From positions 304,523 through 368,522 of the forward strand of contig CAYHBZ010000001.1 of assembly GCA_964355175.1 (NCBI GenBank): a stretch of 64,000 nucleotides of DNA, read 5' to 3'. Of the stretch, positions 7,321 through 62,847 are shown in pieces. Source of the DNA: an uncultured Gammaproteobacteria bacterium. GTDB taxonomy: Bacteria; Patescibacteriota; Patescibacteriia; Magasanikbacterales; GWA2-37-8. The notes under the pieces were generated by a model. The model was not told where the DNA came from, ran no database searches, and saw only the letters and a program-made list of their open reading frames with translations. The translations under genes were made by a program, and so were the position numbers. How positions within the stretch are numbered: the stretch's first letter is position 1; the number at the start of each line of letters is the position of its first letter.

Positions 7321-7394
7321 TGGGCGACAGAGGATTTGAACCTCTGACCTTTACAATGTCAATGTAACGCTCTAACCAACTGAGCTAGTCGCCC
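7321..7394 (-). tRNA. tRNA-Val (anticodon GAC)
   Basis: The reverse complement is GGGCGACTAGCTCAGTTGGTTAGAGCGTTACATTGACATTGTAAAGGTCAGAGGTTCAAATCCTCTGTCGCCCA. The anticodon loop is TTGACAT. Confidence 0.9.
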
Positions 7395-7592
7395 TTAAAA
7401 CAGATGGATTGTAGCAGATGTTACTAAAAAAATCAAGATGAGATTGGTTTTAATGTGCTGGTAGCAAAACTGTTCCGAGCGGCCATACGACTGCCGCAGC
7501 GCAACCTGCCAGGGCCTAACTCTGAGGAAAGCGATAAATACTTTTGGTACCGGCAAAAAACCAAAATCTGCGAGATAATGTTACAGGGGAAT

Positions 7593-8561: not shown

Positions 8562-8643
8562 ATTTAAAAAACAATAATAACACTTTAATAACTTCTGCCA
8601 GATGATAACCTATCTAAAAAAATAACTTTTTTCATAGAGCAAA

Positions 8644-9951: not shown

Positions 9952-10040
9952 AAAATTCTATTTCTACGTACTAATTTTACTTTATAATTTATAATTAATA
10001 CCCTATAATTATAACGCTAAAAACTGCCGAGGTCAATATG

Positions 10041-10069
10041 AAAATCAAAAAATCAGCTTGGTAGCTGAT
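10041..10069 (-). terminator. Intrinsic terminator downstream of the 16S rRNA
   Basis: On the minus strand, atcagc / gctgat (10052-10069) form a hairpin that is followed by tttttgatttt (plus-strand aaaatcaaaaa at 10041-10051). Confidence 0.5.
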
Positions 10070-10074
10070 TTTCG

Positions 10075-10103
10075 CTTGACTTCATAAATGTGACAAAGAA
10101 CCA
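10075..10103 (-). other. 3' half of the 16S rRNA processing stem
   Basis: cttgacttcataaatgtgacaaagaacca is complementary to 11837..11864, whose reverse complement is cttgacaacataaatgtgacaaagacca. The two halves bracket the mature 16S. Confidence 0.65.
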
Positions 10104-10183
10104 TATCTATCTTGTTCGCCGATTCTGATCAGAGATCAGGATAAGCTCGACTTGGATTCACATACTTTCGTATGAGTATCTCC

Positions 10184-11734
<1,551 letters not shown>

Positions 11735-11836
11735 TAAAAAAAGAGAATGATAAGCTCGGAAAAATTCCGAACTATTATTTGTTTTGTTGTTGAATAGACA
11801 GATTTTTAAATATATAAATTTTACTTTATATACTTA

Positions 11837-11864
11837 TGGTCTTTGTCACATTTATGTTGTCAAG
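11837..11864 (-). other. 5' half of the 16S rRNA processing stem
   Basis: This segment is complementary to 10075..10103 and lies in the leader between the predicted promoter and the 16S 5' end. Confidence 0.65.
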
Positions 11865-12039
11865 GTTCATTCTTTCCTTTTGAAGCCCAGATAAGGCTTC
11901 GACAAAGAAAGAAAAAAGAGGAAGCCATTTTGACTTACTCTTTTCTCTTTCCAGTATCGTCCGAAATTTCCGGTAGACTTAGAAAAATGATTTGATTTTG
12001 AGGTACAATTTGGAGGTAGGTTTTTTCAAAAGCTTTTAC

Positions 12040-40900: not shown

Positions 40901-42189
40901 TTGGCAAAATTTTGAACTCTTTCTACCGTATCTCCCAAAGGTGTCGCATTCCAAACCGCACTCTTGATACCACTGCCAGCGGCACTCACCGCTTTACTAC
41001 CCATATCTTTGGTCTTATTAAATGCCCACATACCGGCCGCTACACCAGAGCCAACCGTAGCCACTTTCTTGGCAAAATCCGTGGCCTTGCTCATCGCACT
41101 GCCACCTACTGTACCAAGCGACTGCGCGGTCTTGGCACCAACAAGTAAAATACCAATTGCGATAGCGAAGTTGGCAATTTTATCAAAACTCATCACCGCG
41201 CTAATACCCACGGTCGCGGCCGCGCCGTTAACTTTCGCACCCGGCATATTTTCTTGCGGAGCGGAATTATTCTCTTTGCTACTAATTTCAGAATTTATCT
41301 GACCACTGCCCACTACCGCAAATGACAGCCATAGGAAAAATACTACGACCGGACCCACGATGACATGATTACCAAACTCACTCCACCATTGCGAAGCATA
41401 TTTTTCGGTTTGCGGAATCACGCTGAGCACAAAAGCAAATGGCGACAACACAATCAAAATCCACAGCACCAACATGCGAGCCAAAAGCATAAATACAAAT
41501 ACGGCCATAATGCCCAAAGTGAGAGCGGCAAAACCAAGTGCGCCCACCGCGGCACCAAAAATTTCTGAATTACTGGTGAGACCTTGCGGACCAGTTTCGG
41601 GATTGAGAGAATAAATTTTATCCAAACTAAAAGCGTTGATCAAATTACCACCGGCCGTGGCGGCGATACCGTTTACAAAAGTAATCATTACCACCTGAGA
41701 AATATCAATAATCACGCCACAAATTATTCGACTGAAATTTACCAAAATAGCGGCAAAGAAAAACTTCACCAACATTTTTTTCCATTCGTATTGTTCTAGA
41801 CCCAAGATAGTACCAAAAGCCACCAGCAACAAAACCACCACAAAAAACATATTGGTAATATCACGCACCATCACCCAGCCTACCTGCACAGCGGTGGAAT
41901 TCAGATAGCCATTATAGCCGGCAATCTCAATAATAAACGACAAACAAAAAATCGCCAGACGAATCATCAAAGCCGCAGCGGCCAAGAGCATGGTCGTGAT
42001 TGCTTTGACAAAAGTATTAGGCTCAAAACCACCGGCGGCGGCCGGCTCGGCATACACCACATTTGTACCCATCACCGCATACACACCCAGACCCAAAACC
42101 AGCAAAAATACAAAAAGGGCCACTTGGTTTTTGTGGGCAGATAAAAAGTTATAGAGTTTAATTGTTCTCGCTTTAATACTTGAGAACAT
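37993..42189 (-). CDS. VirB6/TrbL-like polytopic membrane protein with a charged C-terminal extension of about 1000 aa
   Basis: The N-terminal 350 aa or so contain at least 6 TM segments (…MVRDITNMFFVVVLLLVAFGTILG…ILVNFSRIICGVIIDISQVVMITF…), as in VirB6/TrbL/PrgH-type channel proteins. The remainder is K/E/A-rich and looks like coiled coil. It is the first gene of the operon. Confidence 0.6.
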   Translation of the reverse strand: MFSSIKARTIKLYNFLSAHKNQVALFVFLLVLGLGVYAVMGTNVVYAEPAAAGGFEPNTFVKAITTMLLAAAALMIRLAIFCLSFIIEIAGYNGYLNSTAVQVGWVMVRDITNMFFVVVLLLVAFGTILGLEQYEWKKMLVKFFFAAILVNFSRIICGVIIDISQVVMITFVNGIAATAGGNLINAFSLDKIYSLNPETGPQGLTSNSEIFGAAVGALGFAALTLGIMAVFVFMLLARMLVLWILIVLSPFAFVLSVIPQTEKYASQWWSEFGNHVIVGPVVVFFLWLSFAVVGSGQINSEISSKENNSAPQENMPGAKVNGAAATVGISAVMSFDKIANFAIAIGILLVGAKTAQSLGTVGGSAMSKATDFAKKVATVGSGVAAGMWAFNKTKDMGSKAVSAAGSGIKSAVWNATPLGDTVERVQNFAKRQLESWKIYRSEGPRLKMEEEKDEHGNVKLDDKGNARMKFVNKKDENGKDIEGEYEYEDKDSRSWFQKNRYEARAKLIGSRKTLKKTEDQSKLQEELIDKRITAIPKGAFLRDMPDGFDRVAQGMLAAEKERSAAKTSEFQEYGRRATLESSRFKDGKFQYEKGSIAEQVVGHNERADRNKERTKELMSGTLEEYRKSGKGKQVVAAKVEAKFKAELSEKAAHLAEGGAKLHFMEHAGALLAKQAAIAAEEGTEHAEIEELEKKAAVAFSDTEDKKDENGKIIKHGGKGLLRKQAGAELGADTAKTQLSNNLTKAKHGFDEEAIKAELEAQEILESANNMHSEGSALKRTQLKAEQEELGKLSSEKNRLQAALGAADPSNPEELEAAKKAFNDFDVKNGSTIKAKEDSIETLQEEISSIDNNDQTLKDARKEAVQKARAKRTSSISWENSAAHAKETEEKNAYSKDHNYLLSEVEQEEVYKPRGITVPNEALSEGREYYRKRFTDMDYSTYTSNFGTNLLAMIQKRKDAKEGKGTGPTSADKNIMAAMLDHGVSKSWLDDGIWRAMAPDLKAEMQKNVADGGLGWQGKEFNVEKINDLFAVLSTGGDLEFAGMHKQVAKVMDYAVQEMGMSVAQFYDKLENQDFTGSELKTFGDKFGADSAPLKTITDKSKMAQYIKTQDDNQSQIQFVTNLRDEMAGGSHTENGGHADNIKSSRGKQRHVLVGAGIAQDGVLGEVNKLDVGNRAGKQSHSYINLDEGTGYATRTRGKAYRISRGDITSHLNHQKTTPRYLNHMAGLASTENVEDYFTEKDGLLINGKKANGSDSGRHNWAQKFSDDGIGLAGRYSEVKSGKRLGHIKNKEDALHQQTTNDWFNELVKDQLFTNPQDVLMTLAKKSQVDAQEAYQTGKMNITVMAKGKQEHITNISQLISLYNEGAFTDDGKAPKRQMAAFKPVEKGTAEKNKKDPTS

Positions 42190-43755: not shown

Positions 43756-46700
43756 CTATGGATTTTCTATTTTATTTACTGGCACAACTACTCTAGACTT
43801 AAATAAAGTATTAGAGTGAGAATTTTCAGATGTATCAGTATATATAGAATAAAAACTACACTCTTGCATTTTACCATCATAGCAACTACTTGTACCATCT
43901 GTACCTGCAGTTTCACTATCCACACAAGTACCATTACACCATCCCCAATTATCCAACACCTGAACTTTTGGTTGATAAACACAGCAACCGCCCAGTTTGG
44001 CATCATCCCATTTTGTCTTTTGAACACCACTGAGGACATCACAATTTTCATGCCAGATAGGAGCGCCTTCTTGGCCAGTACAATTATAATAAACTGTGGC
44101 GGTATATGGATGGAGATCACAGCTTTGATTTAGAATATATCCAAAGGCAGGAGCTTTGGTCTCATCAGCGGTACACTGAGGCAACAACTTGCCGTTACAT
44201 TCACTATCCATAGTACAAGGCACACTAGAACCGTTACATACACCGGCTTTACACATACCGCCTATAAAGTATCCGCGCTGATTCCAAAAACTACCATCAC
44301 TGGTTTTTTTGATATCACTTGGATCACCGGTACCCGGGTCAATAATAATTCTTCGCACCGGCATATGATCTGAGTCGGCATTATAGAAGAATTTGAAACT
44401 TGCTTCGTATGGCTTGGTGTCGATGACCAGATGATCAGTAGCGGATGCGGGCAATTTATTGTTAATGTTGAAACCATCCTGGAATATTTCCTGACATTTG
44501 CCGCTGGTGTCACAATCACCGACCGGATGTACTTGAGGAACTGATTTAGAAGGATCGTGGGCATCGCCATTATAATTTGTAGCTATATTAGTCACATCCA
44601 AATCTTTGGTAGTCAAAACCAATTTATCACTGGTGGTTGGCGATCTATATAATTGAGTTTTGTTATCAGAGAATATACTGATATTGCCAAACGGAATCTT
44701 AGCATAAACCTGCACGAGCAAACTCAGCGACTCTTTGATCTTGTCTACCAAAGGCTTACCACTGGTTGGGGCTTTGGAACTCATATTCTTTGGCAAACAT
44801 ACTTTCACCTGATCTCCAACACAACTATTTTCGTAACAAGCGGCATCAGTAGCACAACCTAAAGTACTGCTAACTACCCCATTGAAACTACAGTTACCTG
44901 CACAGAAGAAACCATTCTTTTCACAATTACTACTGCCATTGGCAGCATTACAGTCCAAAGCCATCTTTGGCGTGGTTGTACTACTGGTACAAGAGTTGGC
45001 TGAAAGATTACAAACCGAAGTATCGCCAAAAGCATTCTTACACTTAGTATTATCACCGGTACCGTCGGAATTTTTACATTTAAATTGACAAGTATTGTTG
45101 TTACCATGATTAGCACAAACGATATTGTAATTACAATTACTGTCTTGAGTACAACTGGAATAACTGGCAAGACTCCAGCGATCATAAGTTAAATTATTTG
45201 AGGTAAAACCTTTGTATCCTACAGGAGAACCTTTAGGACACATAGCTGTACTAAGCGGCTCTTCAAAAATTCCATTCGTGCCAAAACAAGAACGTAATAA
45301 ATACAACGGACTATTAGGGCTTTTGGTTTTAGAGTCATTCATGAAAGCGAACGGTGAGCTGGTAGCTTCACGAGTAAAATTCACTTTATTTTTATAAACG
45401 GCATCTACATTGGAAACATCTATCGTTTTGAAATCGCTTTTGGTATATTTCCACAACCTATCCGCCCAAGGTGCAAATTTTGTATCCAAACTGTCGAACT
45501 GGACATAGGCCTGGCAACCAATCTGAGTGTTTTGGAAACTTGACATAATGTTTGAATACCAAGTACCGTCCGGATAAGCTTTTGGTTCATCCGGCACACA
45601 GTGGGTATAACACCAATCTGGGTCATAATTATCACAGCCCTTAATTCCGCTAGCGGCTTTATAATCACTATGGAAACCTACGCCACAGATAGTGTGTGGA
45701 GATTCTTCAAAACCGTCATCAAGCGCAAGGGCAAACACACAATCAGAATCTGAATTATACACGTTAGCAGATGTATTAAAACATCTATCAAAACCACCCA
45801 AATCCGATCTGTAAATATTCGCGGCCACACAATACTTTGTTCCTTCCGGTAGTGCCGCGGCCGACTGTGGATTACTGCCATTGATATCCACTGATCCCTC
45901 TATTGAACCAAGTGGCAACCAACTCATACATGGATATTGTGGATCGTCCTTTGTACCACCAATTACTCTAGATTTATCATACTCCAAACAAAAACCTTTC
46001 CAACCATACAAATTTTGAATTTTATTATCTTTTATCTGACAGGTACCTCCGGCTTTTTCACATTCTCCTGGTGGCAATTGAGCCGGATTTTTAGCATCAA
46101 AAGCAACACTACATGGCTGATCATCTTTTGAACCACCTAAACATACACCTTTATTATCTTCAGCATACACTGTCTTCAAGGAAGAATCATTTTTCTGAGA
46201 AAAATACTTGACTACGGACTTATTACCAAATGTTACTTTGGCATAATCACAATCACAAACCTGAGCCGCCGGATCTCCGGCATCAAATACAGCACCACCA
46301 TTTTCAAAGCATTTATTTAATTTGGTGGAATCCTTCAAATTATTCGCAAAAATATTTGGAAAAGGAGAGTCTTTTTCCGGATAAGCGCGACAAGCCTTAC
46401 CAATACTAGAAGCGGCCAAATCACTATTTTTGCCATCATTACCTTGCAAACACCATCCATTTGTACAAACACCGTCATTTTGTGCACCACAAGATACAGT
46501 AGTTGTAGCTGATTTACAACCAAATTTATTACTACCACCCGCGCACTTTGTGACATCATTTCCACAAGGAATAAGCCTAAGCAATCTCCAATCAGGATCG
46601 GGATCAGAAGCTTTGGCGATATTAAATTGCCACAATTCCTCTACCGGATAACTTCCCAAAATAGACAGACCTACTAACTCTCTTCCTTTCCAGGACACAT

Positions 46701-49700
46701 CGCGAGTTACATATTTTTCTTCAGTCAAAACCTTATTGGAATACTCACTTTGTCCGGTAATAAATTCGGCGCAATTTGCAGCTTGCCCATTTGGATCACT
46801 GGCACTAGGCAACTTGTCACAGAGGCCAATCGCGGTACACTGGGAAACTTTTTTATTTTGTTTATCATCCCATTTGTCGGTGCTGGCTTTGCATTGGAGC
46901 CATTCCGCGCATTCGCGATCACGCTTCACTGAAATAATACGATTAGCGTCTAGATTACCAGTAGTCATTGGATTGACTTTGGTGACTGCAAATAAATTAC
47001 CACTGATATCGCCCAAAGTACTATCGCTTTTGGCGTAGGTAGCTACAGTATCATATACCTTGGTTGGTTTATCGGTTTGATCAAACAGCGCACACCCGGC
47101 TTTTTGACTAACCTGTCCAGCACAATCACCTTCTGTTAGTTTAGTATTGTCAAACAAATAATAAGTTTGATCTTTATCAGCGTGGTCAATAAATTCAGAA
47201 CAGGTATCTTGTTCAGCCGGACACTCACCTACAAAATTTTTGTATTTGCCGGTATCACCAAATGACCACAGGTTAAAATAATTTCCATTTTTCTTATAAT
47301 CAGGATAGCAGGCTTGTTTGTCTTTCAGGTCGGGCAAACAAATATTTCCGCCAGAACATTCATCATTACTGCTACAGAAAGTTTGTGGATTGGCCACAGC
47401 CAAAGTAGTGCTGTTGCCACAGACACTCACACCTTTCCAAAACCAACCGGATATAGGTTGTTTGGATATCGGATCATTGAAGGTTCGCAGGGAACAAATT
47501 TTATTTCCACTCACAGCCGGATCTTTGAAATAGGCTGTACCTTTGCTGGAATTATAAGCATCACAACCTACCGCTTCCGCTTTACACAAAATACCACTTT
47601 TCGGACCAGCGTCACTAGTATTATCTTCAAACTGATTTGGATCAATTTTTACTGTGGTAGTAACATATTTTATTTTACCGGTCGCAGTCAAAGTCTGTTT
47701 ACCGGCATAGGTACAACCAAGATCTACAGCATTACAACTACTATTACTCTTACCATCGGCCACTAGATATATAGTACTACTGTCGGTACTATCGGCTGGG
47801 ACATAATAGGTCGAATCCAATACTTGCGGATGAGACAAACTACTATTATTTATATTGGCAGCAGTAATCTCGGACAAAGTAAATCCTTTTATATTCATAT
47901 AACAGCCACTCTTGCCCTGCTCTACCTGACAAGAGAACGACTTCCCGCCTACCACAGCAGTGCTCTTGGTACCGCCAATGCCCGACAAGAATACATTATA
48001 GGCGCGCGGACCGGCATCGGATACTTTATTAAAAGTATCTTTAAAAGCGGTACAACCAATAGCACCATCACGACAGAGATAACTAAAGTTGGTAAGGTAA
48101 TACAAAGTATCACCCAAACTATTTTTTGGACCGGTGTAAGCGGTACAGCCCAAAGCGGCGCCCGGTAAATTATCAGCCGGTTCGTCATCGCAAATTGAAT
48201 CCACTCGCAAAGAATTCTTTACCAAGTAGATATAATCGGAGACTTTTGTCAGACGAATATTATCCAAGAATAGACTACCGCTACCATTTAAAGTAAAGAT
48301 AAGACTGTTTAAAGTGGCGGTATCGGAAGATGGTAATTTAATGTTGAATTTGAATACTTGCCAGTTGTTATTGGCGCTAAAAATTGAAATATCAGTTGTC
48401 TTGCCGTTGTTGTCACTCATTTTCACAGACGCATTTAGACCGGTCCCTTTGGCCCAGAAAGTGAGATCATAACTCTGATCAGAAGCCTTGTCCACATCGC
48501 CACCCGAAACCGGTACAGATTTGGAAAGTACTGCGTTGTTGCCGGACAGTTCCAAGGAATGTTCACCGGCGTGATTTGATTCATTAGACCATACTACCGT
48601 GCCACCGTTTACCGACCAGCCTTTGGCCGCGGAAACTGAATCGGCAGTTTCAAAGGTAATGATAGGATTAGTGCTGCTGGCATCCAAACCAATAGTTTGA
48701 ATATTATTACCGTGATTGCCTTTATAGGCGCGACAAGAAACCATCTCAGCCGCGCAAGTCTGGCTGGATTGGTTGTGACTTATTATACCTCCTGGCAAAC
48801 CATAATAATAACAAGCACCATCTTTGGCTTCGCCGTTGCCAAAACATTTGTCTGGACCAGCCATTTCGTCACTATTTAGACGATACTGTGCACAGTCGGC
48901 GGATACTACCACAGTAGTGTGCATCAGAGCATAGTAAACATTGCCTTGATCATCATTAAATTGTCGACAATCCGGATCAGCAGTTCCGCTCTTATATAAT
49001 TTTTCATTACATTGATATTGCTTGGCATAGTTGCGCTCAACATCATCCTTAAATACTGTCAAAGGATTACCGTCAGTATATTTTTGCAAAGTATATGATT
49101 GTAATTGATAGCCACCAACTTTTGAACCTTCGTAAGTATAGAAATTTTTCTGTTTATTTTCATCCGGCTTGATACAACTGCGCAACAGGGTAAAATTTTC
49201 TACTTTTTCACCACCGTCTTGCGAGGATTCCATATTAGTGAAACCGGTACAATTATCGTCCGCCACAGTACATTCTTTGCCGGATTCAAAATTATTATAT
49301 TTGGAAGGAGGCACTATATAAGCGAGCGGATTGCCGCCGGAATAAGTGGTAGGCATTTCTTGATAGGCATTATACCCTACACAGCGGGCATCACACTGGT
49401 CGTTCCAGGCCGTGACAGTGTTATTGTCTACCTGGGCCGCCAAAAATTTACCGGGAATACCAGGAGCATCAGTGTCATTTACATTTTTGAATATCGAACA
49501 GCCGACTTCGCTAGCAATACAAACCTTGGCATAGCTGTCGCACTCTGTTTTTGGAGTCATCTTGATAAGATCGGACAAACTCTGTGGCCAATTTATACCA
49601 TTGGCACTGTTGGCATCTTTATCATAACAATTCAAATAATCCGGAGCTTTTTTGAGATATACCAAATCAGTATTAACATTACTCACACTTGGAGCATTTC

Positions 49701-51705
49701 CAGCGCTGGCATTTTTTACCAATCTAAAAGCACTACAACCGGCGGCTGAAGCATCACAGCTAGAAACTTTGTTATTTAAATAAATACCTTTGTTGGAAAT
49801 ATCAGTATAAGGAGCACTAAGCGCGGTAGATGTTGTCCAGCCAGCATTATTTTGATTCAAACTATACGCGCTACAACCAACATCATTTTGTTCACAACTG
49901 CCGGTATCTAAAGTGCGATACAAATAACCAACCTGCTCACCCTGACTATTGGTAAATGAGCGGCAAGTAGCATATTTTGGTTCACATTTTTGACCTTCCT
50001 CAAACTTCCAGACATTTTTTTCACGCACACAGTTGCCATAGCCTATACAATGACCGGTGCTGTCGCGACCCACGCAGGTTTTGATATCCATACATTCCTC
50101 TAAACGATCCGGCACATCCGCACCTACCGGAGTTGTGCCATACCCCAGAGCATCACAACGAGTTTGTTCTAATTTTACTACCCAATTTGGATCTACCAAA
50201 TGACAATATGGGAAATTGGTCGGATCATCATTTACGCTAAGCACATTGCCTTGTGCGTCTTTTACATAACTACATTTATAAAAACTTTTCACTACCTCTT
50301 CTAGAGTGGCGGGATTATCCGGATCACTGCGTTTGGCTGCAATCTCCATGCCTAATGGGAAAATACCAAGCTGGCGCAACACCGCGATATTGCTATAGCA
50401 ATAATTATTATCTTTATCAAAACAACGTGGGTCCTGATTGGCCGTAACATTGGTCGGTGGAATCAATTTGGAGGTAGGGTGTAAAAAACCGCGCTTCATC
50501 GCCTCGGCGATGGTGAGAGGATCTCCATGTTTGGCTTCTTGGATAGCTTGGACCAAGCTATCATCAGCACGACAGTTGTATACACCATGCGAATCACAAC
50601 TATTGAGCTGGGTCAAAATATCATAATCCTCGGCCGCGGTTAATTTTGGTGTCAAAAATTCACTAAAGACAGCTTCGGCGGCGGCGCGACCGGCCAGTTC
50701 GGTACCGGCGCTGTTTGGATTCTGACCAACATTAGCAGCTGGACATTTGCCGCTACCGGTAACACCTGGAATACTCACACAGCCGGCTCCAAACGGGAGC
50801 ATTCCATTTTCTCGGAAATTTTTGAGCATCTGACTGGAGAGAGTATTCAAAAATATACTGAGGGTGGAAGGGATAATTTCATAAGCACCAGATCCCATGG
50901 CGGCGCCAATCTGAGCTTGGCTTTTATCGTTTTGTTTGTTGGGCGCATTGGCTTTCATTTCGTCAGCCGTTACTTGAGCTGGCGTTTTGATGCGGTTATC
51001 AATCAGACCGGTCACAGCTTTGAAACCGCCGCCCTCGGCACGGGTAGCTCTGGCATCATCAGTCTGCTGAGCGTAGAGACGGTCAATTTTTTCAGTAGTT
51101 TTAATATTTATACCCAAATCAGTATCATCCACTTTTAAAGAAGCGGAAAAAACTTTACTAGGGTCAATTCCATTATTATAAACACTACTCAAAGAATTAC
51201 CCCAATTAGTGGAAAAAGTTCGTAAATTACAAGCCGGCTTGGGCGGATTGGCACCATAATTATAGTTCAAACCTATTCTGAGGGCTAGATCCAACTTGAT
51301 ATCTGGCACTTTACATAGATCCAAGCCGAAAGTTTTTCCCAGACTATCGATAGCGGCACCGGCGGCGTCATTACCCACATCTTTGAGATAGCCGCCCACA
51401 CTCTTGGTATGAGCAAACGGATTCTGACCTTTGCCACCCGAAGCCAACCAGACGGCGCTGTCATAGGCCACTTTACGCATAAAATAACCGACAGCTTGTT
51501 GAGCGGCATTCATCACGGCAATTTTCCAACCATTTTTAATTGTGTCCCATATGCTTTTCGCCTGTGCCTGAACATCAGCAATAACTGAAACTGGCAACTG
51601 AGCCTGAGCCGGCTGAGCGGACAAAATAAATTCAGTAAATGAAGAAAAAACAAATAGAGTCAAAAGTATGCCGACCGCGAATTTTTTTGTTTTTCTAAAA
51701 AACAT
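43756..51705 (-). CDS. Giant Cys-rich secreted protein (2649 aa) with no domain I can name
   Basis: The ORF is uninterrupted over 7.9 kb. It has a signal-like N-terminus (FAVGILLTLFVFSSFTEFILSAQPAQA). Cysteines are very frequent throughout, often as C-x(n)-C pairs. Confidence 0.85.
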   Translation of the reverse strand: MFFRKTKKFAVGILLTLFVFSSFTEFILSAQPAQAQLPVSVIADVQAQAKSIWDTIKNGWKIAVMNAAQQAVGYFMRKVAYDSAVWLASGGKGQNPFAHTKSVGGYLKDVGNDAAGAAIDSLGKTFGLDLCKVPDIKLDLALRIGLNYNYGANPPKPACNLRTFSTNWGNSLSSVYNNGIDPSKVFSASLKVDDTDLGINIKTTEKIDRLYAQQTDDARATRAEGGGFKAVTGLIDNRIKTPAQVTADEMKANAPNKQNDKSQAQIGAAMGSGAYEIIPSTLSIFLNTLSSQMLKNFRENGMLPFGAGCVSIPGVTGSGKCPAANVGQNPNSAGTELAGRAAAEAVFSEFLTPKLTAAEDYDILTQLNSCDSHGVYNCRADDSLVQAIQEAKHGDPLTIAEAMKRGFLHPTSKLIPPTNVTANQDPRCFDKDNNYCYSNIAVLRQLGIFPLGMEIAAKRSDPDNPATLEEVVKSFYKCSYVKDAQGNVLSVNDDPTNFPYCHLVDPNWVVKLEQTRCDALGYGTTPVGADVPDRLEECMDIKTCVGRDSTGHCIGYGNCVREKNVWKFEEGQKCEPKYATCRSFTNSQGEQVGYLYRTLDTGSCEQNDVGCSAYSLNQNNAGWTTSTALSAPYTDISNKGIYLNNKVSSCDASAAGCSAFRLVKNASAGNAPSVSNVNTDLVYLKKAPDYLNCYDKDANSANGINWPQSLSDLIKMTPKTECDSYAKVCIASEVGCSIFKNVNDTDAPGIPGKFLAAQVDNNTVTAWNDQCDARCVGYNAYQEMPTTYSGGNPLAYIVPPSKYNNFESGKECTVADDNCTGFTNMESSQDGGEKVENFTLLRSCIKPDENKQKNFYTYEGSKVGGYQLQSYTLQKYTDGNPLTVFKDDVERNYAKQYQCNEKLYKSGTADPDCRQFNDDQGNVYYALMHTTVVVSADCAQYRLNSDEMAGPDKCFGNGEAKDGACYYYGLPGGIISHNQSSQTCAAEMVSCRAYKGNHGNNIQTIGLDASSTNPIITFETADSVSAAKGWSVNGGTVVWSNESNHAGEHSLELSGNNAVLSKSVPVSGGDVDKASDQSYDLTFWAKGTGLNASVKMSDNNGKTTDISIFSANNNWQVFKFNIKLPSSDTATLNSLIFTLNGSGSLFLDNIRLTKVSDYIYLVKNSLRVDSICDDEPADNLPGAALGCTAYTGPKNSLGDTLYYLTNFSYLCRDGAIGCTAFKDTFNKVSDAGPRAYNVFLSGIGGTKSTAVVGGKSFSCQVEQGKSGCYMNIKGFTLSEITAANINNSSLSHPQVLDSTYYVPADSTDSSTIYLVADGKSNSSCNAVDLGCTYAGKQTLTATGKIKYVTTTVKIDPNQFEDNTSDAGPKSGILCKAEAVGCDAYNSSKGTAYFKDPAVSGNKICSLRTFNDPISKQPISGWFWKGVSVCGNSTTLAVANPQTFCSSNDECSGGNICLPDLKDKQACYPDYKKNGNYFNLWSFGDTGKYKNFVGECPAEQDTCSEFIDHADKDQTYYLFDNTKLTEGDCAGQVSQKAGCALFDQTDKPTKVYDTVATYAKSDSTLGDISGNLFAVTKVNPMTTGNLDANRIISVKRDRECAEWLQCKASTDKWDDKQNKKVSQCTAIGLCDKLPSASDPNGQAANCAEFITGQSEYSNKVLTEEKYVTRDVSWKGRELVGLSILGSYPVEELWQFNIAKASDPDPDWRLLRLIPCGNDVTKCAGGSNKFGCKSATTTVSCGAQNDGVCTNGWCLQGNDGKNSDLAASSIGKACRAYPEKDSPFPNIFANNLKDSTKLNKCFENGGAVFDAGDPAAQVCDCDYAKVTFGNKSVVKYFSQKNDSSLKTVYAEDNKGVCLGGSKDDQPCSVAFDAKNPAQLPPGECEKAGGTCQIKDNKIQNLYGWKGFCLEYDKSRVIGGTKDDPQYPCMSWLPLGSIEGSVDINGSNPQSAAALPEGTKYCVAANIYRSDLGGFDRCFNTSANVYNSDSDCVFALALDDGFEESPHTICGVGFHSDYKAASGIKGCDNYDPDWCYTHCVPDEPKAYPDGTWYSNIMSSFQNTQIGCQAYVQFDSLDTKFAPWADRLWKYTKSDFKTIDVSNVDAVYKNKVNFTREATSSPFAFMNDSKTKSPNSPLYLLRSCFGTNGIFEEPLSTAMCPKGSPVGYKGFTSNNLTYDRWSLASYSSCTQDSNCNYNIVCANHGNNNTCQFKCKNSDGTGDNTKCKNAFGDTSVCNLSANSCTSSTTTPKMALDCNAANGSSNCEKNGFFCAGNCSFNGVVSSTLGCATDAACYENSCVGDQVKVCLPKNMSSKAPTSGKPLVDKIKESLSLLVQVYAKIPFGNISIFSDNKTQLYRSPTTSDKLVLTTKDLDVTNIATNYNGDAHDPSKSVPQVHPVGDCDTSGKCQEIFQDGFNINNKLPASATDHLVIDTKPYEASFKFFYNADSDHMPVRRIIIDPGTGDPSDIKKTSDGSFWNQRGYFIGGMCKAGVCNGSSVPCTMDSECNGKLLPQCTADETKAPAFGYILNQSCDLHPYTATVYYNCTGQEGAPIWHENCDVLSGVQKTKWDDAKLGGCCVYQPKVQVLDNWGWCNGTCVDSETAGTDGTSSCYDGKMQECSFYSIYTDTSENSHSNTLFKSRVVVPVNKIENP

Positions 51706-55544: not shown

Positions 55545-55937
55545 ATGGAACTCAATACCCTTTTGTTCCTAGTCGGACGTATCGTATTCGGCGGCTATTT
55601 CATCATGAGTGGCCTCAACCACTTTCAGCATGCGGATATGCTCAGTGGATATGCGGCCAGCAAAGGAGTAAAATCTCCAAAGATGGCGGTATACTTTAGC
55701 GGTTTACTGTTACTGGTTGGCGGCTTGGGCGTATTACTGGGCGTATGGGTACAGTTAGCAGTATTATGCCTAGTACTTTTCTTGTTGCCAGTTAGTTTTA
55801 TGATGCATGCTTTCTGGAAAATTACTGACCAAAATATGAAGATGACAGAGAGTGTCAATTTCAAAAAAAATATGGCATTACTAGGCGCGGCTTTAATGTT
55901 GCTTGCTATTTCTACTCCTTGGCCTTTGTCGCTGTAA
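55545..55937 (+). CDS. DoxX-family membrane protein
   Basis: GRIVFGGYFIMSGLNHF plus three further TM segments is the typical DoxX layout. Confidence 0.7.
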   Translation: MELNTLLFLVGRIVFGGYFIMSGLNHFQHADMLSGYAASKGVKSPKMAVYFSGLLLLVGGLGVLLGVWVQLAVLCLVLFLLPVSFMMHAFWKITDQNMKMTESVNFKKNMALLGAALMLLAISTPWPLSL

Positions 55938-55954
55938 AATAAATAAAAATAAAA

Positions 55955-55983
55955 GCAGCCAATCAATTGGCTGCTTTTTTTCT
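55955..55983. terminator. Bidirectional intrinsic terminator
   Basis: gcagccaat pairs with attggctgc (55955-55974). It is flanked by an A-run and a T-run and sits between the convergent doxX and the 2283-aa gene. Confidence 0.6.
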
Positions 55984-55995: not shown

Positions 55996-58900
55996 TTAAT
56001 TGATCGGTACAGACACCAAAAGATCTTTTATAAACGCGCTAATACCATCACTTATAATAACCTTCGGTTTAAATACACCCGGCGCAGAATAAGTGTGCGA
56101 TAAAGAACTGTTTATCACCGATGCCGGCGTGATTACCCCGTCGCCAAAATCCCAGGTATATGAATAATAAGGTTTATCTGATTCGTAGAGATAAACATTT
56201 TTAAAGTAAGAATCAAAGACAGCTGGACACCAGGCATTGCCGCAATAAGAAGTAAAGTACATTTCACTGTAAGCTTTGTTGGCCAATAATTTGCCTACCG
56301 GGATTTTGTAATGTTTCCATTGACCATAAGTGGTGTAATCTTTAAAACTGTTGTCTGTATTGGCAGATTCTCCGTATACAGCATTTAAAGCAATATAATT
56401 TTTCACATTCCAATCCGGGTAGCCATTGTCAAAACCAAAGCCGTGGCTCCAGCCGAGACCATTAGATTTGAAGTCCAACTCTACTATCGTACTAGAGGTG
56501 ATGGTATATGGATGATTCACCGCTTTCCACATCATCTTATTTAAATATAGCGTATCGCCATTGTCTTGCGCTTCGCCTGAACCGGAGGCGAACGATGGAA
56601 TGATGTTACGAAGGTTTAATTTACTGAAATCCAATTTAGCCAGTACTTTGGAAGCGGCTCCGCCGGCTGGTTCGGCGGTGAAACTCAGCGCCAGAGATGA
56701 AGTCCCTATAATTGGTGCAGAAAAAACACTGGCCGTAAGCGGTAAATAACCAGAGTTTATATTCACACTCTTGGTATCAATATTTTTACCATCACTCACT
56801 ATCACTTTGGCATTAAAGGTTCCGACTGAATTATAAATATGATTTATAGTATTCATAGCCGGTGAACTTTCTGTCACTACCCCGTCCCCAAAATCCCAAC
56901 TGTAGGAATAATTGGATTTGTCCGATTCATAAACATTAATATTTTTGAAATAAGAATCAAAGACAGCCGGACATGAGCTGTTGCCACAATAGGAATTAAA
57001 GTACATTTCGCTGTAGGCTTTGTTGGCTAATAATTTTCCTACTGGAATTTTGTAGTGTTTCCATTGGCCGAACTCTTTGTAATCATTGAAAGAATTATCA
57101 GTGGTAGGAGATTCGCCGTAAACCGCGCTGAGAGCTATAAAATGTTTCACATTCCAATCTGGATAACCGTTATCAAAACCAAAACCGTGACTCCAACCCT
57201 TGCCATTGGATTTGAAATCCAATTCTACCACGGTATTAGGTGTAATTGTATGAGAGTAATTTACCGCTTTCCACATCATTTTATTTAGATAAAGAGTGTG
57301 CCCATTATCTTGAACTTCGGCGGATCCAGACGCATAAGATGGTATAATGTTGCGGAGATTTAATTTGCTAAAGTCTAAAGCTAAAACCTGTTTACCGGCT
57401 CCATCAGTCGCGTTGGCAGAAAAATCCACCGCTAGCGGCGGCACCCCACTGGTAGAGCTAGCGACAATGGCGGCTTTGAGAGGCAGGTAGCCTGGGCTGA
57501 TAATTACACTTTTAGTGTCAGTATTTTTACCGTCACTCACAATAACTTTCGCGGAGAAATCACCATCTTGTAGATATTGGTGGGTAGTGGCGGCAAAGAC
57601 AACCGAACTTTGTACAGGCGTACCATCCCCAAAATCCCAACTGTAAGAATAATAAGATTTATCAGATTCGTAGACATGGACATTTTTGAAATAAGAATCA
57701 AAGACAGCCGGACATGAGCTGTTGCCACAATAGGAATTAAAGTACATTTCGCTGTAGGCTTTGTTGGCTAATAATTTTCCTACTGGAATTTTGTAGTGTT
57801 TCCATTGGCCGAACTCTTTGTAATCATTGAAAGAATTATCAGTGCTGGCAGATAAACCATATACCGAACTCAAAGAGATATAATTTTTCACATTCCAATC
57901 TGGATAACCATTATCAAAACCAAAGCCATGACTCCAGCCCTTGCCATTGGATTTGAAATCCAATTCTACCATAGTATTTGGTGTAATTGTGTATGGACTG
58001 TTTACTGCCTTCCACATCATTTTGTTTAGATATAAAGCATCACCATTATCCTGGACTTCAGCTGAACCAGAAGCGTAAGAAGGTATAATATTGCGAAGAT
58101 TTAATTTGCTAAAGTCTAATTTAGCCGGCACTTTGGAAGCAGACCCTCCGATTGTTTCAGCACTAAATTTGACTGTGACGGGCGGCACACCAATAGTAGT
58201 GTCCGCGACAAGCTGAACACTCAATGGCATTACATACACACTACTAATTGGACCGACAAAATTACCGGTTAAACTCTCATAACCACTCTTATTCACTGCG
58301 ACAACACTGTAATAATATGATCCGTTACTAGGAAAATTATTATCGGTATATTCTGTTGATGAAACATTGGCAATGTTAGCTAGCGGCATTAATCCTGCAG
58401 TACTACTAACCATCAACTGCGAACGATAAATATTGAAATGATCGAAATTGCCAACAGGATCAAGATATTTGTCCCATTTCAAAACCACCCCGTCTTTAGT
58501 AGAAGTCGCTGTAATATTATTTACACTTTGAGGAATATTAAAATCTTTAGTAAGATCAGCAGTATTGAACACCATTTGTGCGCCATACAAATAACCGCTA
58601 GACCACACGGCCATCAAATTATTTCCGTTGCCGGCCAAAGATACCGCGTCGCTATTAAAATAATTTTGACTGGCTAAATTTATATTCTGTGGCGACAGCC
58701 AACTGCCGTTCGCCAATTTGGTTGTCCAAGCTAAATTAGTTTGACCGCTATTGTTATTATAATTTTGATATACAATCTGCACCTTGCCCTGACCAGCCAG
58801 TGCCAACTTCGGATATTCAGCACTCATACCACTAATAATCGGCGACACTTCTTCATTTGACTTCCAGACCACTCCATTAAACCAGGTGTACATCACTCTG

Positions 58901-61900
58901 GATCGGCTTTGTCCGGAAACTGGATCCTGATAATATTCCCTAAAGGCGTAATGCAAATTATTATTTTCTGATTTCAATACCGGCATATCTACCGAACTAG
59001 TGGACACTATTACCGATGATGACCAACTAGATCCGCTTTTGATAGTATGCTTTATTTTATTTTCGCTTCCCGCTTTATAAACCAAGTGTAATTTATTGTC
59101 GGCTGTCACGGCTAACAAAGGATAACTTGGGTATTGGTCAAAATTAAGATTATTAATAGCCGACCAACTGCCAGACAGGGGTTTAGATATAAAATTGATT
59201 GTTCTATTACCAGAAGTCTGACAACTATCATTCCAAGTCGCACCATCCACCCAAGCGACCGAAGTATTGCCGACACTATCTACAGTAAAATTTGGATCGC
59301 GTGATTCGGTAGAATTATTGGACAAATTAGCCGGACCAACCCATTTACTACCATCAAAATAGTAATGGTAAATTTCCTGATCATTGAAACTAACGCAACC
59401 GCCGCTACCACCGGAACTTTGCCACATCAAATGAGGATTAGATCCGACCATTTTTAACTTTAACGAACTTACAGGACGATAACCGGTTAAGTTGCCGTCG
59501 GTCTGCCACACTTTTTCATAGACAACTATCGGCTCAGTCCAAGTGCTATTTTGGTATTTTAGATACATTAATCTTTCTTTGATTATACGCGGGCTTTGAC
59601 TGAGATTGTCTTCTAAATAACGATACACCACATGAGCGACACCGGAGGAATCATATTCCAACATATATTGATCACGCGAAATGCTAGCCGTGCTAGTGCT
59701 GCTTTCCACTACATATTGAGGCATCGCCCAAGGATCAGCCGGCTTAGCGGACGGATCTTTGATAGTAAAATAATTATCACTGTTATCAATACCTTCTAAG
59801 AAATTTTTTGCGTCCGCGCCGCGTACTCTGATTTTAAATTTATCCCCTGTATAAGATGAACTGAGCGGTATGGCCCAATTATAACTTCCGGTATTTGGAA
59901 TATTGTTAACCAAACTTGTAAATGAATTTGGATATTCTAAATATAAACTTACTTTGGAAACACCGCCGGTTGACGAAGAGGTCCAATTAATCGTATTGGT
60001 CGCGCCCAGCGTAAATATTTCACCGCCGTTTGGTGAAGTCACCGTAAAGGTGGGAGCTGTGCCGTCGATTATTTCAAACGGCCCCCATTCTTTGGAAACA
60101 GATTCATTGCCACGAAAATCTCTTAAGTTGCCTTTTATTTTATAACCAGTACCTAGAGGTAAATCCGTTGGCACATACCATTTCATTTCCGCGTAATTAT
60201 TTACCGCTTGATTCACGGCTGTTCCCAAAAATTGCCAGATTTGATTCGTCGGATTCCATAGATAAAAATCCCCTTCCTTAATTCCCACATTATCCGATCC
60301 AAAGGTTAATAAACTATATTCTTGTTGATTTTTTACTTTATAAGTAGTCGCCCAACGTAATTCCGTGGCGGAATTTACTGGCGCAACCGTATCTGATTTT
60401 AAATGTGAAAAAAAACGAATATTAGTAGTGGTGGCATTTGGTGAAACATCGAAAGACTGACGGAAACCGTCATATTGTGTTTTTTCTATATATCCAAACA
60501 ACCGGCCATTATTATATCCTCCTTTGCTAAAATTTCCATCATTGTCTGTACTGACAGAGCCCGTACCCTGAGTAAACCCACCTACATTAGGAAATTTTTC
60601 TTTATCCAAAGTAACAAATCCGCTAATTCCACCAACATATTTACTGTCAGTGGCACTCATCTGCACCGACACTGGATTGGAATAATAATGTAAATTATTG
60701 TTAGTATCGAGCACACCCATCGAAAAATCATAAATTACATTCTCTTCAAAATAACCTATTATATATTTACTAGGATCATAACCGGTGTAGTTCCAGTTGG
60801 TATCGGTTTTTTTCTTGAACATCAAAATATAACCAGCGCGATTTGGATCCGGTTTTGATTGTGGGATAGTGGCAATAACCGCCGGGTTGCCGTTTAGGCT
60901 ATATTTAAAAACGGAAAAATATAACGGCAAGGCGGCGTAACTATTCGCGGCGCTGGCAAAATTAAAATTTTTCGCTATCCAGTTGTCATCATAGTTGGCG
61001 TCCCGATCGCCTTCCGCGTACAATCTAAAATCAACATTGCCGATATAGCCGATAGTATCCGGTATGTTAAAATTAACAACAACGGTTTCGTTTGGCTTGA
61101 TCACCGTACCTGCCGGCAAATTAAATGTCAGACCAGTATTATAATTATCCGCGAAAATATAAAAAGTGGTGGTGGCGACATAATCATATCCTCGATTTTT
61201 TATAGTCACAGTAAAATTTGCCTGACTTCTGTTTACCAAATTACCGGCATTTACCAAATCAACAAAAATTAAATCACCTTGCGCCAAAGCTCGAACAACC
61301 GATAAAGTAGACTTTATTTCCTGGTCAAAACTACCATCAGCCGCCTGACTCAATAAAATATTTTTATTCAAAACAGCCACCTTATCCAAATTCACTTGGT
61401 AAATCTTCCAAGTACTGACAGTCGCGCTTTCATCAATTACATTTTCCACACCAAGCAATCTTTCGTTCGTAGTATCATATTGTGAATTTAAATAATTCAA
61501 CAAACTGTTAATCTTACTCTGAATGGAAATTTGAAATCCTCCATCCGCGGCCAAAGTAAGGGTTTTGAAAGGATACAAATATTGCGCGGTAAAATTTATT
61601 AAATAATAGCTAGGGTTACTATTTTCAGTATAACGCATCGCTCCATCGGATGGGATACTATTGGTTATAAATAATAAAACTTTTGGCAAAGCATCTGAAA
61701 TAGAATAACTTCCGGCCCACAGCGCCCAAGCTACCTGCGCGCTAGTTTCCACATCACTGGCATATCTAGGCTGTAAACCATAGCCGCCGTCTTTATTTTT
61801 TTGCGCGATAATTTCATCCAAAAGCGCCTGGTAAGGCTGACCTAGACCAACCAAAATTCTAGCCTTTATCGCTTTCTCACGCAGATTGACCGGAGCGGTA

Positions 61901-62847
61901 TTTTTCAAAAAATTCACCGCGGCCGTATACTGATCATTATTGGTAAGTTTAAAATCACTTAACGCGAAAACCACTTCGGCCGTAGTCTCATACTGATTAT
62001 AGCGACCAAAACTACCATCGGGATTTTGCTGAGTAGAAATATAATACAAAGCATTATCGGAAGGATACTTTTCAATACCATCATAGCTAGCAATAATCGG
62101 CGTACCGGCACTAACACTCTCTACGCCCAGCCAAGCACGCAAATATTCACCAATAGTAGCCTGACGCCCATTTCTTTTTTTCAAATTTTCTTCAATCGAA
62201 TTTGCCTGTTCGCGAATACCGGCACCAGAGACAGAATATAAATCCAAATCAGATTGTTTTTCGATAAATCTATTTTTTATATCTGCCTTGATAGCTGATT
62301 CGTTCAAATCATGCAGAATATTTCTTTTAGGATTAGCTTTGAGATCTTTGCGCCAATCTACCACACTGTTTAAATTTGGATCAACGGTTTTATTTTGCGC
62401 TACATACGGATGTGCTTCTTTAATTCTGCTGGTCAAAAAATCTCTTTCTATTTTTATCCTATTTTGATCGGAGTTTTTATCGGTAGCAATTTCGCGATAT
62501 TGACCTACCATTTCCTGAATATCTTTAGGTACATGGTATTGATCCATCGCATCAGCGTCCCCCATTTTATGTTTGGGAATAGTTAGATTTTTCAAAGATT
62601 CACTATCGCGACGAGATGAAAACTCAGCGGCCTTTTGCTGATAAACAGAAAAATCCTGTGGCAAAACCACTTCCTGTTCCCAATCTATCGCCGACCAATC
62701 TGTTTCTGGTAAATTTGAAGCGGTAGAACTAACCGACAATACACCCTTGGTATTTTTCACACCGACAGCTTGTGCCAAAGTAGGCAAAAAATTACCTACG
62801 ACTAGGCTGATGATTATAGGTGTGACCAAAAGGCGTTTTAGGAACAT
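55996..62847 (-). CDS. Giant multidomain secreted protein (2283 aa) with prenyltransferase/terpenoid-cyclase-like repeats, a beta-propeller-like region, an Fn3-like domain and three C-terminal modules each ending in a PKD domain
   Basis: The N-terminus is signal-like. QQNPDGSFG, QKNKDGGYG and QAADGSF repeats fit the prenyltransferase-like alpha/alpha toroid pattern. S/W-containing strands recur (SGSSWSS, SGSWSA, NGSWLSP). An Fn3-like segment is present (VLKWDKY...FNIYRS...YYYSVVAVNKSGYES). WDFGDG...VIVSDGKN PKD motifs occur three times. Confidence 0.85.
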   Translation of the reverse strand: MFLKRLLVTPIIISLVVGNFLPTLAQAVGVKNTKGVLSVSSTASNLPETDWSAIDWEQEVVLPQDFSVYQQKAAEFSSRRDSESLKNLTIPKHKMGDADAMDQYHVPKDIQEMVGQYREIATDKNSDQNRIKIERDFLTSRIKEAHPYVAQNKTVDPNLNSVVDWRKDLKANPKRNILHDLNESAIKADIKNRFIEKQSDLDLYSVSGAGIREQANSIEENLKKRNGRQATIGEYLRAWLGVESVSAGTPIIASYDGIEKYPSDNALYYISTQQNPDGSFGRYNQYETTAEVVFALSDFKLTNNDQYTAAVNFLKNTAPVNLREKAIKARILVGLGQPYQALLDEIIAQKNKDGGYGLQPRYASDVETSAQVAWALWAGSYSISDALPKVLLFITNSIPSDGAMRYTENSNPSYYLINFTAQYLYPFKTLTLAADGGFQISIQSKINSLLNYLNSQYDTTNERLLGVENVIDESATVSTWKIYQVNLDKVAVLNKNILLSQAADGSFDQEIKSTLSVVRALAQGDLIFVDLVNAGNLVNRSQANFTVTIKNRGYDYVATTTFYIFADNYNTGLTFNLPAGTVIKPNETVVVNFNIPDTIGYIGNVDFRLYAEGDRDANYDDNWIAKNFNFASAANSYAALPLYFSVFKYSLNGNPAVIATIPQSKPDPNRAGYILMFKKKTDTNWNYTGYDPSKYIIGYFEENVIYDFSMGVLDTNNNLHYYSNPVSVQMSATDSKYVGGISGFVTLDKEKFPNVGGFTQGTGSVSTDNDGNFSKGGYNNGRLFGYIEKTQYDGFRQSFDVSPNATTTNIRFFSHLKSDTVAPVNSATELRWATTYKVKNQQEYSLLTFGSDNVGIKEGDFYLWNPTNQIWQFLGTAVNQAVNNYAEMKWYVPTDLPLGTGYKIKGNLRDFRGNESVSKEWGPFEIIDGTAPTFTVTSPNGGEIFTLGATNTINWTSSSTGGVSKVSLYLEYPNSFTSLVNNIPNTGSYNWAIPLSSSYTGDKFKIRVRGADAKNFLEGIDNSDNYFTIKDPSAKPADPWAMPQYVVESSTSTASISRDQYMLEYDSSGVAHVVYRYLEDNLSQSPRIIKERLMYLKYQNSTWTEPIVVYEKVWQTDGNLTGYRPVSSLKLKMVGSNPHLMWQSSGGSGGCVSFNDQEIYHYYFDGSKWVGPANLSNNSTESRDPNFTVDSVGNTSVAWVDGATWNDSCQTSGNRTINFISKPLSGSWSAINNLNFDQYPSYPLLAVTADNKLHLVYKAGSENKIKHTIKSGSSWSSSVIVSTSSVDMPVLKSENNNLHYAFREYYQDPVSGQSRSRVMYTWFNGVVWKSNEEVSPIISGMSAEYPKLALAGQGKVQIVYQNYNNNSGQTNLAWTTKLANGSWLSPQNINLASQNYFNSDAVSLAGNGNNLMAVWSSGYLYGAQMVFNTADLTKDFNIPQSVNNITATSTKDGVVLKWDKYLDPVGNFDHFNIYRSQLMVSSTAGLMPLANIANVSSTEYTDNNFPSNGSYYYSVVAVNKSGYESLTGNFVGPISSVYVMPLSVQLVADTTIGVPPVTVKFSAETIGGSASKVPAKLDFSKLNLRNIIPSYASGSAEVQDNGDALYLNKMMWKAVNSPYTITPNTMVELDFKSNGKGWSHGFGFDNGYPDWNVKNYISLSSVYGLSASTDNSFNDYKEFGQWKHYKIPVGKLLANKAYSEMYFNSYCGNSSCPAVFDSYFKNVHVYESDKSYYSYSWDFGDGTPVQSSVVFAATTHQYLQDGDFSAKVIVSDGKNTDTKSVIISPGYLPLKAAIVASSTSGVPPLAVDFSANATDGAGKQVLALDFSKLNLRNIIPSYASGSAEVQDNGHTLYLNKMMWKAVNYSHTITPNTVVELDFKSNGKGWSHGFGFDNGYPDWNVKHFIALSAVYGESPTTDNSFNDYKEFGQWKHYKIPVGKLLANKAYSEMYFNSYCGNSSCPAVFDSYFKNINVYESDKSNYSYSWDFGDGVVTESSPAMNTINHIYNSVGTFNAKVIVSDGKNIDTKSVNINSGYLPLTASVFSAPIIGTSSLALSFTAEPAGGAASKVLAKLDFSKLNLRNIIPSFASGSGEAQDNGDTLYLNKMMWKAVNHPYTITSSTIVELDFKSNGLGWSHGFGFDNGYPDWNVKNYIALNAVYGESANTDNSFKDYTTYGQWKHYKIPVGKLLANKAYSEMYFTSYCGNAWCPAVFDSYFKNVYLYESDKPYYSYTWDFGDGVITPASVINSSLSHTYSAPGVFKPKVIISDGISAFIKDLLVSVPIN
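55999..58230 (-). repeat. Three in-frame tandem copies of a roughly 741-nt (247-codon) module
   Basis: 56941-57103 is identical to 57682-57844, which is 163 nt at an offset of 741 nt. The third copy (about 55999-56740) is clearly diverged. All three copies contain LDFSKLNLRNIIPS...WSHGFGFDNGYPDWNVK...WDFGDG. Confidence 0.75.

Follow-up and report, generated by a model that had tools for sequence, protein, structure and literature searches.

The gene at 55996..62847 (minus strand) of the 64-kb window analysed here, the whole 64,000-nucleotide (nt) stretch of contig CAYHBZ010000001.1, encodes a protein of 2283 amino acids (aa) in which a long conserved scaffold is followed by three tandem modules, each a PKD domain split by an insert that resembles a carbohydrate-binding module (CBM). 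We put at roughly 0.6 the probability that this is a secreted or surface adhesin, with nested CBM-like modules on a conserved scaffold, intragenic gene conversion among the modules and exchange of the terminal array between lineages. The open reading frame (ORF) is intact and begins with ATG, and the host is an uncultivated, ultra-small bacterium of the Candidate Phyla Radiation (CPR)/Patescibacteria related to Candidatus Magasanikbacteria. A preliminary description of this DNA, made from the sequence alone, had proposed a modular surface protein; that it is modular and secreted is supported, and its N-terminus reads as a Sec-type signal peptide on inspection of the translation. The gene and its modules (M1 to M3) are laid out as follows:

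55996..62847, minus strand: complete gene for the secreted modular protein of 2283 aa, identical to database protein P0153 (550-kb contig)
57502..58242, minus strand: M1, aa 1536-1782 (247 aa), with PKD strands A-B, insert and PKD strands C-G in that order (alignment and in silico excision)
57643..58143, minus strand: insert domain of M1, aa 1569-1735, a CBM30-like beta-jelly-roll (profile searches, fold comparison)
56758..57501, minus strand: M2, aa 1783-2030 (248 aa), laid out as M1 and modelled with AlphaFold (alignment, excision, model)
56902..57399, minus strand: insert domain of M2, aa 1817-1982 (AlphaFold model and Foldseek)
55999..56757, minus strand: M3, aa 2031-2283 (253 aa), laid out as M1, the most diverged copy and the end of the protein (alignment, excision)
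56158..56658, minus strand: insert domain of M3, aa 2064-2230 (profile searches)

The array had been described as three tandem 247-codon modules, each ending in a PKD domain. The three tandem copies and the three PKD domains stand, but only M1 has that length, and the PKD domain does not simply close the module: its strands A-B lie upstream, with the insert nested within. At the DNA level, the three copies form a direct-repeat family (D1) with start-to-start distances of 744 and 741 nt (248 and 247 codons). Pfam finds three PKD stretches above the gathering score (PKD, 69.5 bits against a cut-off of 23.5; PKD_4, 79.9 bits against 27), with matches that start only at profile position 25-28, and alignment of the three modules reveals that the segment "PLSVQLVADTTIGVPPVTVKFSAETIGG" upstream of the insert resembles PKD strands A-B. 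Once the insert of ~165 aa is deleted in silico, the PKD model is matched over positions 2-77 of 80 in M1 and M2 and over positions 16-70 in M3; because the deletion restores a full-length match, each module is a single PKD domain whose B-C loop is interrupted by the insert. The AlphaFold model of M2 (predicted local distance difference, pLDDT, 83.1; predicted template-modelling score, pTM, 0.80) rebuilt the PKD beta-sandwich with all 7 strands, the N-terminal strands A-B among them, and folded the insert as a beta-jelly-roll. These data show a nested PKD/jelly-roll architecture. The PKD domains of the window protein thus differ from those of other secreted proteins (PF00801/PF18911; the ColG/ColH collagenases and the CelJ PKD in PDB 2c4x) in being split between strands B and C.

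In Foldseek, the complete composite module had no counterpart among solved structures, the best template-modelling (TM) score normalised to the query being 0.38. Ranked highest against the whole module, with E 2e-4 to 2.8e-4, were the surface glycan-binding proteins SGBP-B of Bacteroides xyloglucan utilisation loci (PDB 5e7h, 5e7g and 7k44), which combine immunoglobulin (Ig)-like and CBM-like beta-sandwich domains on the cell surface, as the window protein is predicted to do; however, their domains are arranged in series and not nested, the TM-score is ~0.3 with 11-13% identity, and they are lipoproteins of Bacteroidota.

Excised inserts gave no Pfam match even at E<=1, and a word-indexed homologue search with M2 returned just 2 matches. 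The family became visible only in an exhaustive HMMER search, in which a profile of the three inserts was compared with 1.84 billion cluster representatives: the cut-offs E<=1e-3, E<=1e-10 and E<=1e-30 were passed by 1,243, 443 and 54 proteins, respectively. A scan of metagenome contigs with the insert profile confirmed no relative. In none of the family proteins does a Pfam family cover the repeat, and the source names, where given, read "hypothetical protein". At the level of profile matches, the insert is shown to belong to a large unannotated family. The non-PKD part of the module had been noted as a domain not recognised; it is indeed unannotated, but it is a member of a very large family distantly related to CBM30 and not a lineage-specific oddity. 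Family proteins usually carry 2-8 tandem insert copies joined by short linkers (median 20 aa), and the domains that co-occur with them include S8 subtilase, Por_Secre_tail (type IX secretion system, T9SS), RHS and amidase. Tandem copies in the context of secreted proteases, T9SS signals, RHS and amidases are typical of targeting or binding modules.

The likeness to CBM30 is distant. Forty-six diverse members compared with Pfam yielded PKD (7 nested modules), three sub-threshold CBM30 matches (best E 0.0017) and one DUF4082, and the curated CBM30 sequence threshold (PF21582) was reached neither by these three of the 46 nor by the window inserts, which gave no match at E<=1. The family profile matched the CBM30 structures 1wmx and 2c24 with E 0.028, with the motifs W...LEFD...G.GF...YG...W.H.KIP in register. 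The insert has the beta-jelly-roll fold of a type B CBM, and the top Foldseek matches of the M2 model were Bacteroides xyloglucan surface glycan-binding proteins, CBM30, CBM4 and CBM29. CBM30 itself belongs to the type B modules and has beta-glucan and xyloglucan as its ligands (PMC10992016). When set beside the CBM30 of Clostridium thermocellum CelJ/Cel9D-Cel44A (PDB 1wmx, 1wzx and 2c24; PF21582), the insert differs in its sub-threshold sequence signal, in being nested in a PKD domain and in the C-x5-C loop that the window subtype has where the wider insert family has NDHD. We therefore term the insert "CBM30-like": at best it is a distant relative, and it is no established member of the family. 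The earlier suggestion that the unrecognised part might be a binding module agrees with the CBM-type jelly-roll predicted by the structure model and Foldseek.

Near-invariant residues of the insert family (W, T, F, G, G, D, Y, G, S, N and E) are spread across the strands. The window-type inserts (56158-58143, minus strand) carry the motif SYCGN(S/A)(S/W)CP, which holds the C-x5-C loop, at the place of the conserved NDHD(V)xNP of the wider family, and WSHGFGFD where the wider family has GE(I/V)HGIGFD; the loop may, to judge from these motifs, form a disulphide that replaces a metal site. Outside the CPR, a relative of the insert with ~33% identity lies at 8001-8504 of a Planctomycetota contig (L006, DATBFY010000268.1, a Tepidisphaeraceae metagenome-assembled genome, MAG), and many of the best family matches begin with a planctomycete-style LEPR..L N-terminal motif.

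The inserts most probably bind a ligand, and that ligand is most probably a glycan. Recognition of a protein or of another cell, for instance of a host surface protein or an S-layer, would be the strongest competing function, although we consider it improbable, given that CBM30 is the sole sequence-level signal of the insert, that CBMs and surface glycan-binding proteins make up most of the top structural matches, and that family members accompany secreted hydrolases, as CBMs do.

Evidence for gene conversion comes from the insert-coding DNA of M1 and M2, where two segments are concerned:

57682..57844, minus strand: putative conversion tract, M1 copy, coding the C-terminal third of the insert (DNSFNDYKEFGQWKHYKIPVGKLLANKAYSEMYFNSYCGNSSCPAVFDSYFKN; identity and codon comparison)
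56941..57103, minus strand: putative conversion tract, M2 copy, identical over 163 nt

The two segments are exactly identical at an offset of 741 nt, as had been reported, and the identity cannot be extended by one base on either side. Within the block there is no substitution between M1 and M2, synonymous ones included, when codons are compared, whereas in the rest of the insert 76 of 341 sites differ (22%). At the rate of the flanks, 163 consecutive identities have P~1.4e-18, and runs this long appeared in 0 of 200,000 permutations. The third copy is diverged, also as described before: 34 of the 163 sites in the block differ between M3 and M1/M2, and nucleotide identity over the whole module is 67%. 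In the PKD halves, nonsynonymous divergence (dN) between M1 and M2 is 0.34-0.62 with synonymous divergence (dS) saturated or near-saturated, and over all comparisons dN is 0.34-0.78; in the insert dN is 0.07-0.11, with dS saturated against M3. Low dN with saturated dS in the insert indicates strong purifying selection on it, while the PKD carrier evolves fast.

The same restriction to the insert recurs in related genomes. In contig L002, modules 1 and 3 share an identical tract of 461 nt with a different module type between them, and in L003 two modules share one of 458 nt; both tracts begin and end within ~20 nt of the insert boundaries. Insert nucleotide identity is 85-97% within a genome (97% in L002 and L003) and 72-83% between genomes, and this excess of within-genome over between-genome identity is the signature of concerted evolution. 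A tract of zero divergence embedded in diverged paralogous sequence (0/163 against 76/341), and paralogues of one genome more alike than orthologues of different genomes, are both what gene conversion leaves behind. Judging from these patterns, the 163-nt block is an intragenic gene conversion tract, and the comparisons show, as far as alignments can, concerted evolution restricted to the insert together with a variable terminal array.

There is a small chance that assembly, by collapse or chimerism of near-identical repeats, produced the identical block and perhaps also the number of three modules, in which case the true copies would differ from one another or be present in another number. 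All the assemblies are metagenomic, and the k-mers typically used are no longer than repeats of 163-461 nt. For short-read assembly of these genes, the 163-nt repeat of the window and the relatives' tracts, which reach 461 nt, are hazards. Nevertheless, the block is flanked on both sides by 22%-diverged sequence in the same contig, which means that assembly collapse cannot explain the overall three-module structure. Related assemblies obtained independently also contain modules (three in L001, which is probably a long-read assembly; three in P0154, identical in JGI and ENA samples; two in P0003), the insert-restricted homogenisation is repeated in two other assemblies, and the exact 2283-aa protein is on record from two contigs, at NCBI and ENA. 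An assembler artefact might affect the exact length of the tract; it cannot create the overall mosaic pattern. The preliminary description had left recent duplication and gene conversion side by side; mosaic identity and the per-copy dN/dS speak for the latter. Recent tandem duplication of a whole module without conversion, for which the precise 741-nt offset of tandem copies could be cited, is very unlikely: it should have left uniformly low divergence, and what is seen is a mosaic (PKD halves with the dN given above, 22% in the insert outside the block, 0% in the block), besides which the homogenised copies of L002 are modules 1 and 3, separated by a module of another type.

Repeat-bearing adhesins with concerted repeat evolution are represented by streptococcal alpha C/Rib and staphylococcal SasG/Aap. 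Like them, the window protein is long and secreted, has tandem Ig-like repeats, undergoes intragenic homogenisation and varies in copy number between lineages. Unlike them, it has only three repeats, homogenisation is limited to the insert while the PKD halves diverge, the host belongs to the CPR, and neither LPXTG nor another known anchor is present. The locus provides a clean natural example of two things, a domain inserted in a PKD loop and gene conversion with tracts that stop at the domain boundaries.

A BLASTP search with aa 1-1535 returned the identical P0153 along with ten orthologues, which are 31-68% identical across the scaffold and end in different ways. P0154 carries three nested modules of another subtype, P0003 two modules, and P0161 and P0162 one module each; the C-termini of P0155 and P0156 consist of three Laminin_G_3 modules, and those of P0157 and P0158 of Glce-type beta-sandwiches. 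The Laminin_G_3 (LamG) modules of P0155 and P0156 were considered as diverged copies of the insert, but hhalign gave a probability of only 0.2% against the insert family, which makes them non-homologous replacements of the insert modules. Relative to P0154, identity is 69% in the scaffold and 33-47% in the insert; relative to P0003, it is 61% in the scaffold and 77-80% in the insert; and the insert is also 77-80% identical to that of P0004, which has a different scaffold. Since insert similarity does not track scaffold similarity, these values point to exchange of the terminal cassette.

Nesting was scored by a small hidden Markov model of the PKD C-half placed directly after the insert domain. 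The insert domain was present in 155 of the 163 proteins examined, and the PKD C-half directly followed it in only eight: five of the scaffold group (P0153, that is, the window protein, with P0003, P0154, P0161 and P0162) and three others, namely P0001 (a fragment of the frameshifted L001 orthologue), P0004 (FG-GAP-type) and P0058. PKD nesting of the insert is therefore lineage-specific.

Several of the related contigs deserve mention. L001 (ENA ERZ1286166 contig_3323) holds at 4657-11930 a syntenic orthologue in which the giant gene is frameshifted into many short called genes; tblastn finds three modules in it, and the assembly is probably an unpolished long-read one. A second architecture, with an FG-GAP-like N-terminus and 2-3 nested modules, occurs in L002 (59-3127) and L004 (22-2295). 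In module 2 of these FG-GAP-like proteins the insert is of a separate subtype that shares ~43% identity with the window type, and in L002 the gene lies directly upstream of an RHS/YD-repeat ORF of 2411 aa (3137-10372). Genome-contig matches comprised L003 and L004, which are Candidatus Magasanikbacteria MAGs, and two MAGs labelled Gammaproteobacteria with CPR-like contigs. The latter, L002 (CAZXEV010000032.1) and L005 (CAYZHG010000081.1), carry the label "uncultured Gammaproteobacteria bacterium". Proteins encoded on them share 74-80% identity with the window insert, and the contigs closely resemble those of Magasanikbacteria, which looks like mis-binning or mislabelling.

We propose that the protein is displayed on the cell or released from it. 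The PKD domains would form a rod, each presenting one jelly-roll side-on, and the three near-identical binding sites displayed in this way would allow multivalent binding, with a gain in avidity; the target would most likely be a glycan on a host cell or an environmental polymer. The sequences show intragenic conversion of the insert-coding segments beside freely diverging PKD halves, and exchange of the terminal array across lineages in both copy number and module type. It is highly improbable that the protein is instead a multi-headed enzyme in which the insert acts as a small catalytic domain (a lyase or a GH16-like glycanase, for example), as the insert is shorter (~135-165 aa) than GH16 catalytic domains, an EXDXXE-type catalytic motif is not among the near-invariant residues of its family, and the occurrence of 2-8 tandem copies beside bona fide catalytic domains is the behaviour of an accessory module.

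Some points weigh against the adhesin proposal. Ligand binding, localisation and expression of the putative adhesin are predictions from sequence; the side-on geometry and the closeness of the insert termini are deduced from topology and pTM of the predicted model; and bubble-collapsing by assemblers may lengthen perfectly identical tracts in sequences that are, as here, metagenome assemblies. At its C-terminus the protein shows neither a cell-wall anchor nor a transmembrane segment or a sorting signal, so "surface-attached" is to be read as a conjecture.

The scaffold, ~1,535 aa long and conserved, consists of a signal peptide, a helical repeat region, Ig-like domains, a 7-bladed beta-propeller and Fn3, in this order:

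62767..62847, minus strand: signal peptide, aa 1-27 (MFLKRLLVTPIIISLVVGNFLPTLAQA, followed by V), with a K/R n-region, a hydrophobic core and AQA, recognised by eye from the translation
61288..62100, minus strand: QQNPDGSFG / QKNKDGGYG repeat region, aa ~250-520, a possible alpha/alpha-toroid (squalene-cyclase / TED-like; sub-threshold matches only)
61006..61275, minus strand: CARDB-like Ig-type domain, aa 525-614 (Pfam 21.2 bits, cut-off 22.7)
59854..60054, minus strand: Big_7 / Kre9-like Ig domain, aa 932-998 (Pfam, below threshold)
58528..59742, minus strand: beta-propeller, aa 1036-1440 (model with 27 strands in about seven 4-stranded blades)
58276..58524, minus strand: Fn3 domain, aa 1442-1524 (Pfam fn3 E 0.0019, below the cut-off; orthologue profile against PDB 3mpc, E 2.8e-5)

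The repeats of the helical region had been read as prenyltransferase- or terpenoid-cyclase-like, which the profile searches did not sustain: for the window protein, SQHop_cyclase_C scored 17.2 bits (cut-off 26.1; E 0.0027) and Prenyltrans 12 bits (cut-off 26.5; E 0.14). At the same region, the best scores of the orthologues (SQHop_cyclase_N, 23.2 bits against 26.2, E 4.6e-5; TED_complement, E 3.8e-4) were all below the cut-offs, and profile comparison of the squalene-cyclase/prenyltransferase-like region with the PDB gave E~0.02. Neither the window protein nor the best orthologue thus reached the curated Pfam threshold of the prenyltransferase/squalene-cyclase families (PF00432, PF13243 and PF13249). 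Precomputed CARDB (PF07705) annotation is present on the orthologues P0155 and P0159. The Fn3-like domain suggested earlier is real at profile level, as the comparison with 3mpc indicates; its Pfam score (PF00041) was 18.8 bits against a cut-off of 25, and the orthologue P0160 carries PF00041 as precomputed annotation. NCBIfam and direct PDB sequence searches with the whole protein yielded nothing beyond PKD-type matches.

Of the propeller- or sialidase-like appearance noted for the long central region, the propeller was retained and the sialidase was not. The sequence signal for sialidase was just E~0.7, and the structure is closer to 7-bladed propellers (CylK, PLL-family lectins and integrin alpha); the Asp-box repeats and closest structural similarity to sialidases that mark six-bladed Sialidase/BNR propellers were not found in aa 1036-1440. 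Identity to the PLL-family lectins (PDB 5c9o, 6gxr and 6gxs) and to CylK (7ron) is 10-14%, with no sequence-family match, and the fold alone does not imply lectin activity.

The giant gene lies among conserved housekeeping genes (Sm_multidrug_ex, prfB, sua5 and ksgA, followed by a further protein of ~2,600 aa), and the conserved synteny with prfB, sua5 and ksgA identifies it as a stable chromosomal gene. It starts 10 nt after a 219-aa membrane-protein ORF, a gap that suggests co-transcription. Downstream of the gene the following element was found:

55951..55978, bidirectional: terminator-like hairpin with a 12-bp stem and T-runs on both strands, in the gap that separates the giant gene's stop codon from a convergent DoxX gene

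The DoxX-family membrane protein gene (55545-55937, plus strand) is missing from the otherwise syntenic contigs L007 and L008. Two more very large minus-strand ORFs are present in the window, at 43756-51705 (2649 aa) and 37993-42189 (1398 aa), and Pfam gave no match for either at E<=1e-3; the larger of them is syntenic with the ~2600-aa gene of L007 and L008. A complete 16S rRNA gene is located at 10186-11741 (minus strand), with tRNA-Val and tRNA-Ile at 7196-7394, ~3 kb downstream of it. No 23S rRNA gene was found within the window, and therefore the rRNA genes appear unlinked.

Most CPR/Patescibacteria have not been cultivated, and little is known of the way in which they recognise hosts or substrates. 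In the literature we found nothing relevant on PKD proteins of Magasanikbacteria, on giant surface proteins of CPR or on insertion of CBMs in PKD domains. Overall, the gene appears to encode a repeat adhesin with lectin-type modules under gene conversion, a case that is instructive and not unprecedented. More tentatively, the array may serve CPR episymbionts as an exchangeable cassette for recognising hosts or substrates. A conserved stalk protein would then swap non-homologous lectin-type heads between lineages and genes, the heads seen being LamG modules, Glce-type sandwiches and at least three subtypes of nested PKD/CBM30-like modules, and conversion would keep the heads of one protein identical and thereby able to bind multivalently. 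If this were true, the nested PKD and jelly-roll would be a previously undescribed composite recognition module, the insert family of ~1,200 clusters would be a new CBM-like family, and its ligand could reveal the attachment target of uncultivated cells. The locus supplies a candidate that can be expressed, either as the ~165-aa domain or as the ~250-aa nested module with its confident model, and the ligand of the insert domain, once defined, would indicate what this bacterium binds and annotate >1000 protein clusters in a family that also extends to Planctomycetota-type and T9SS-secreted proteins.

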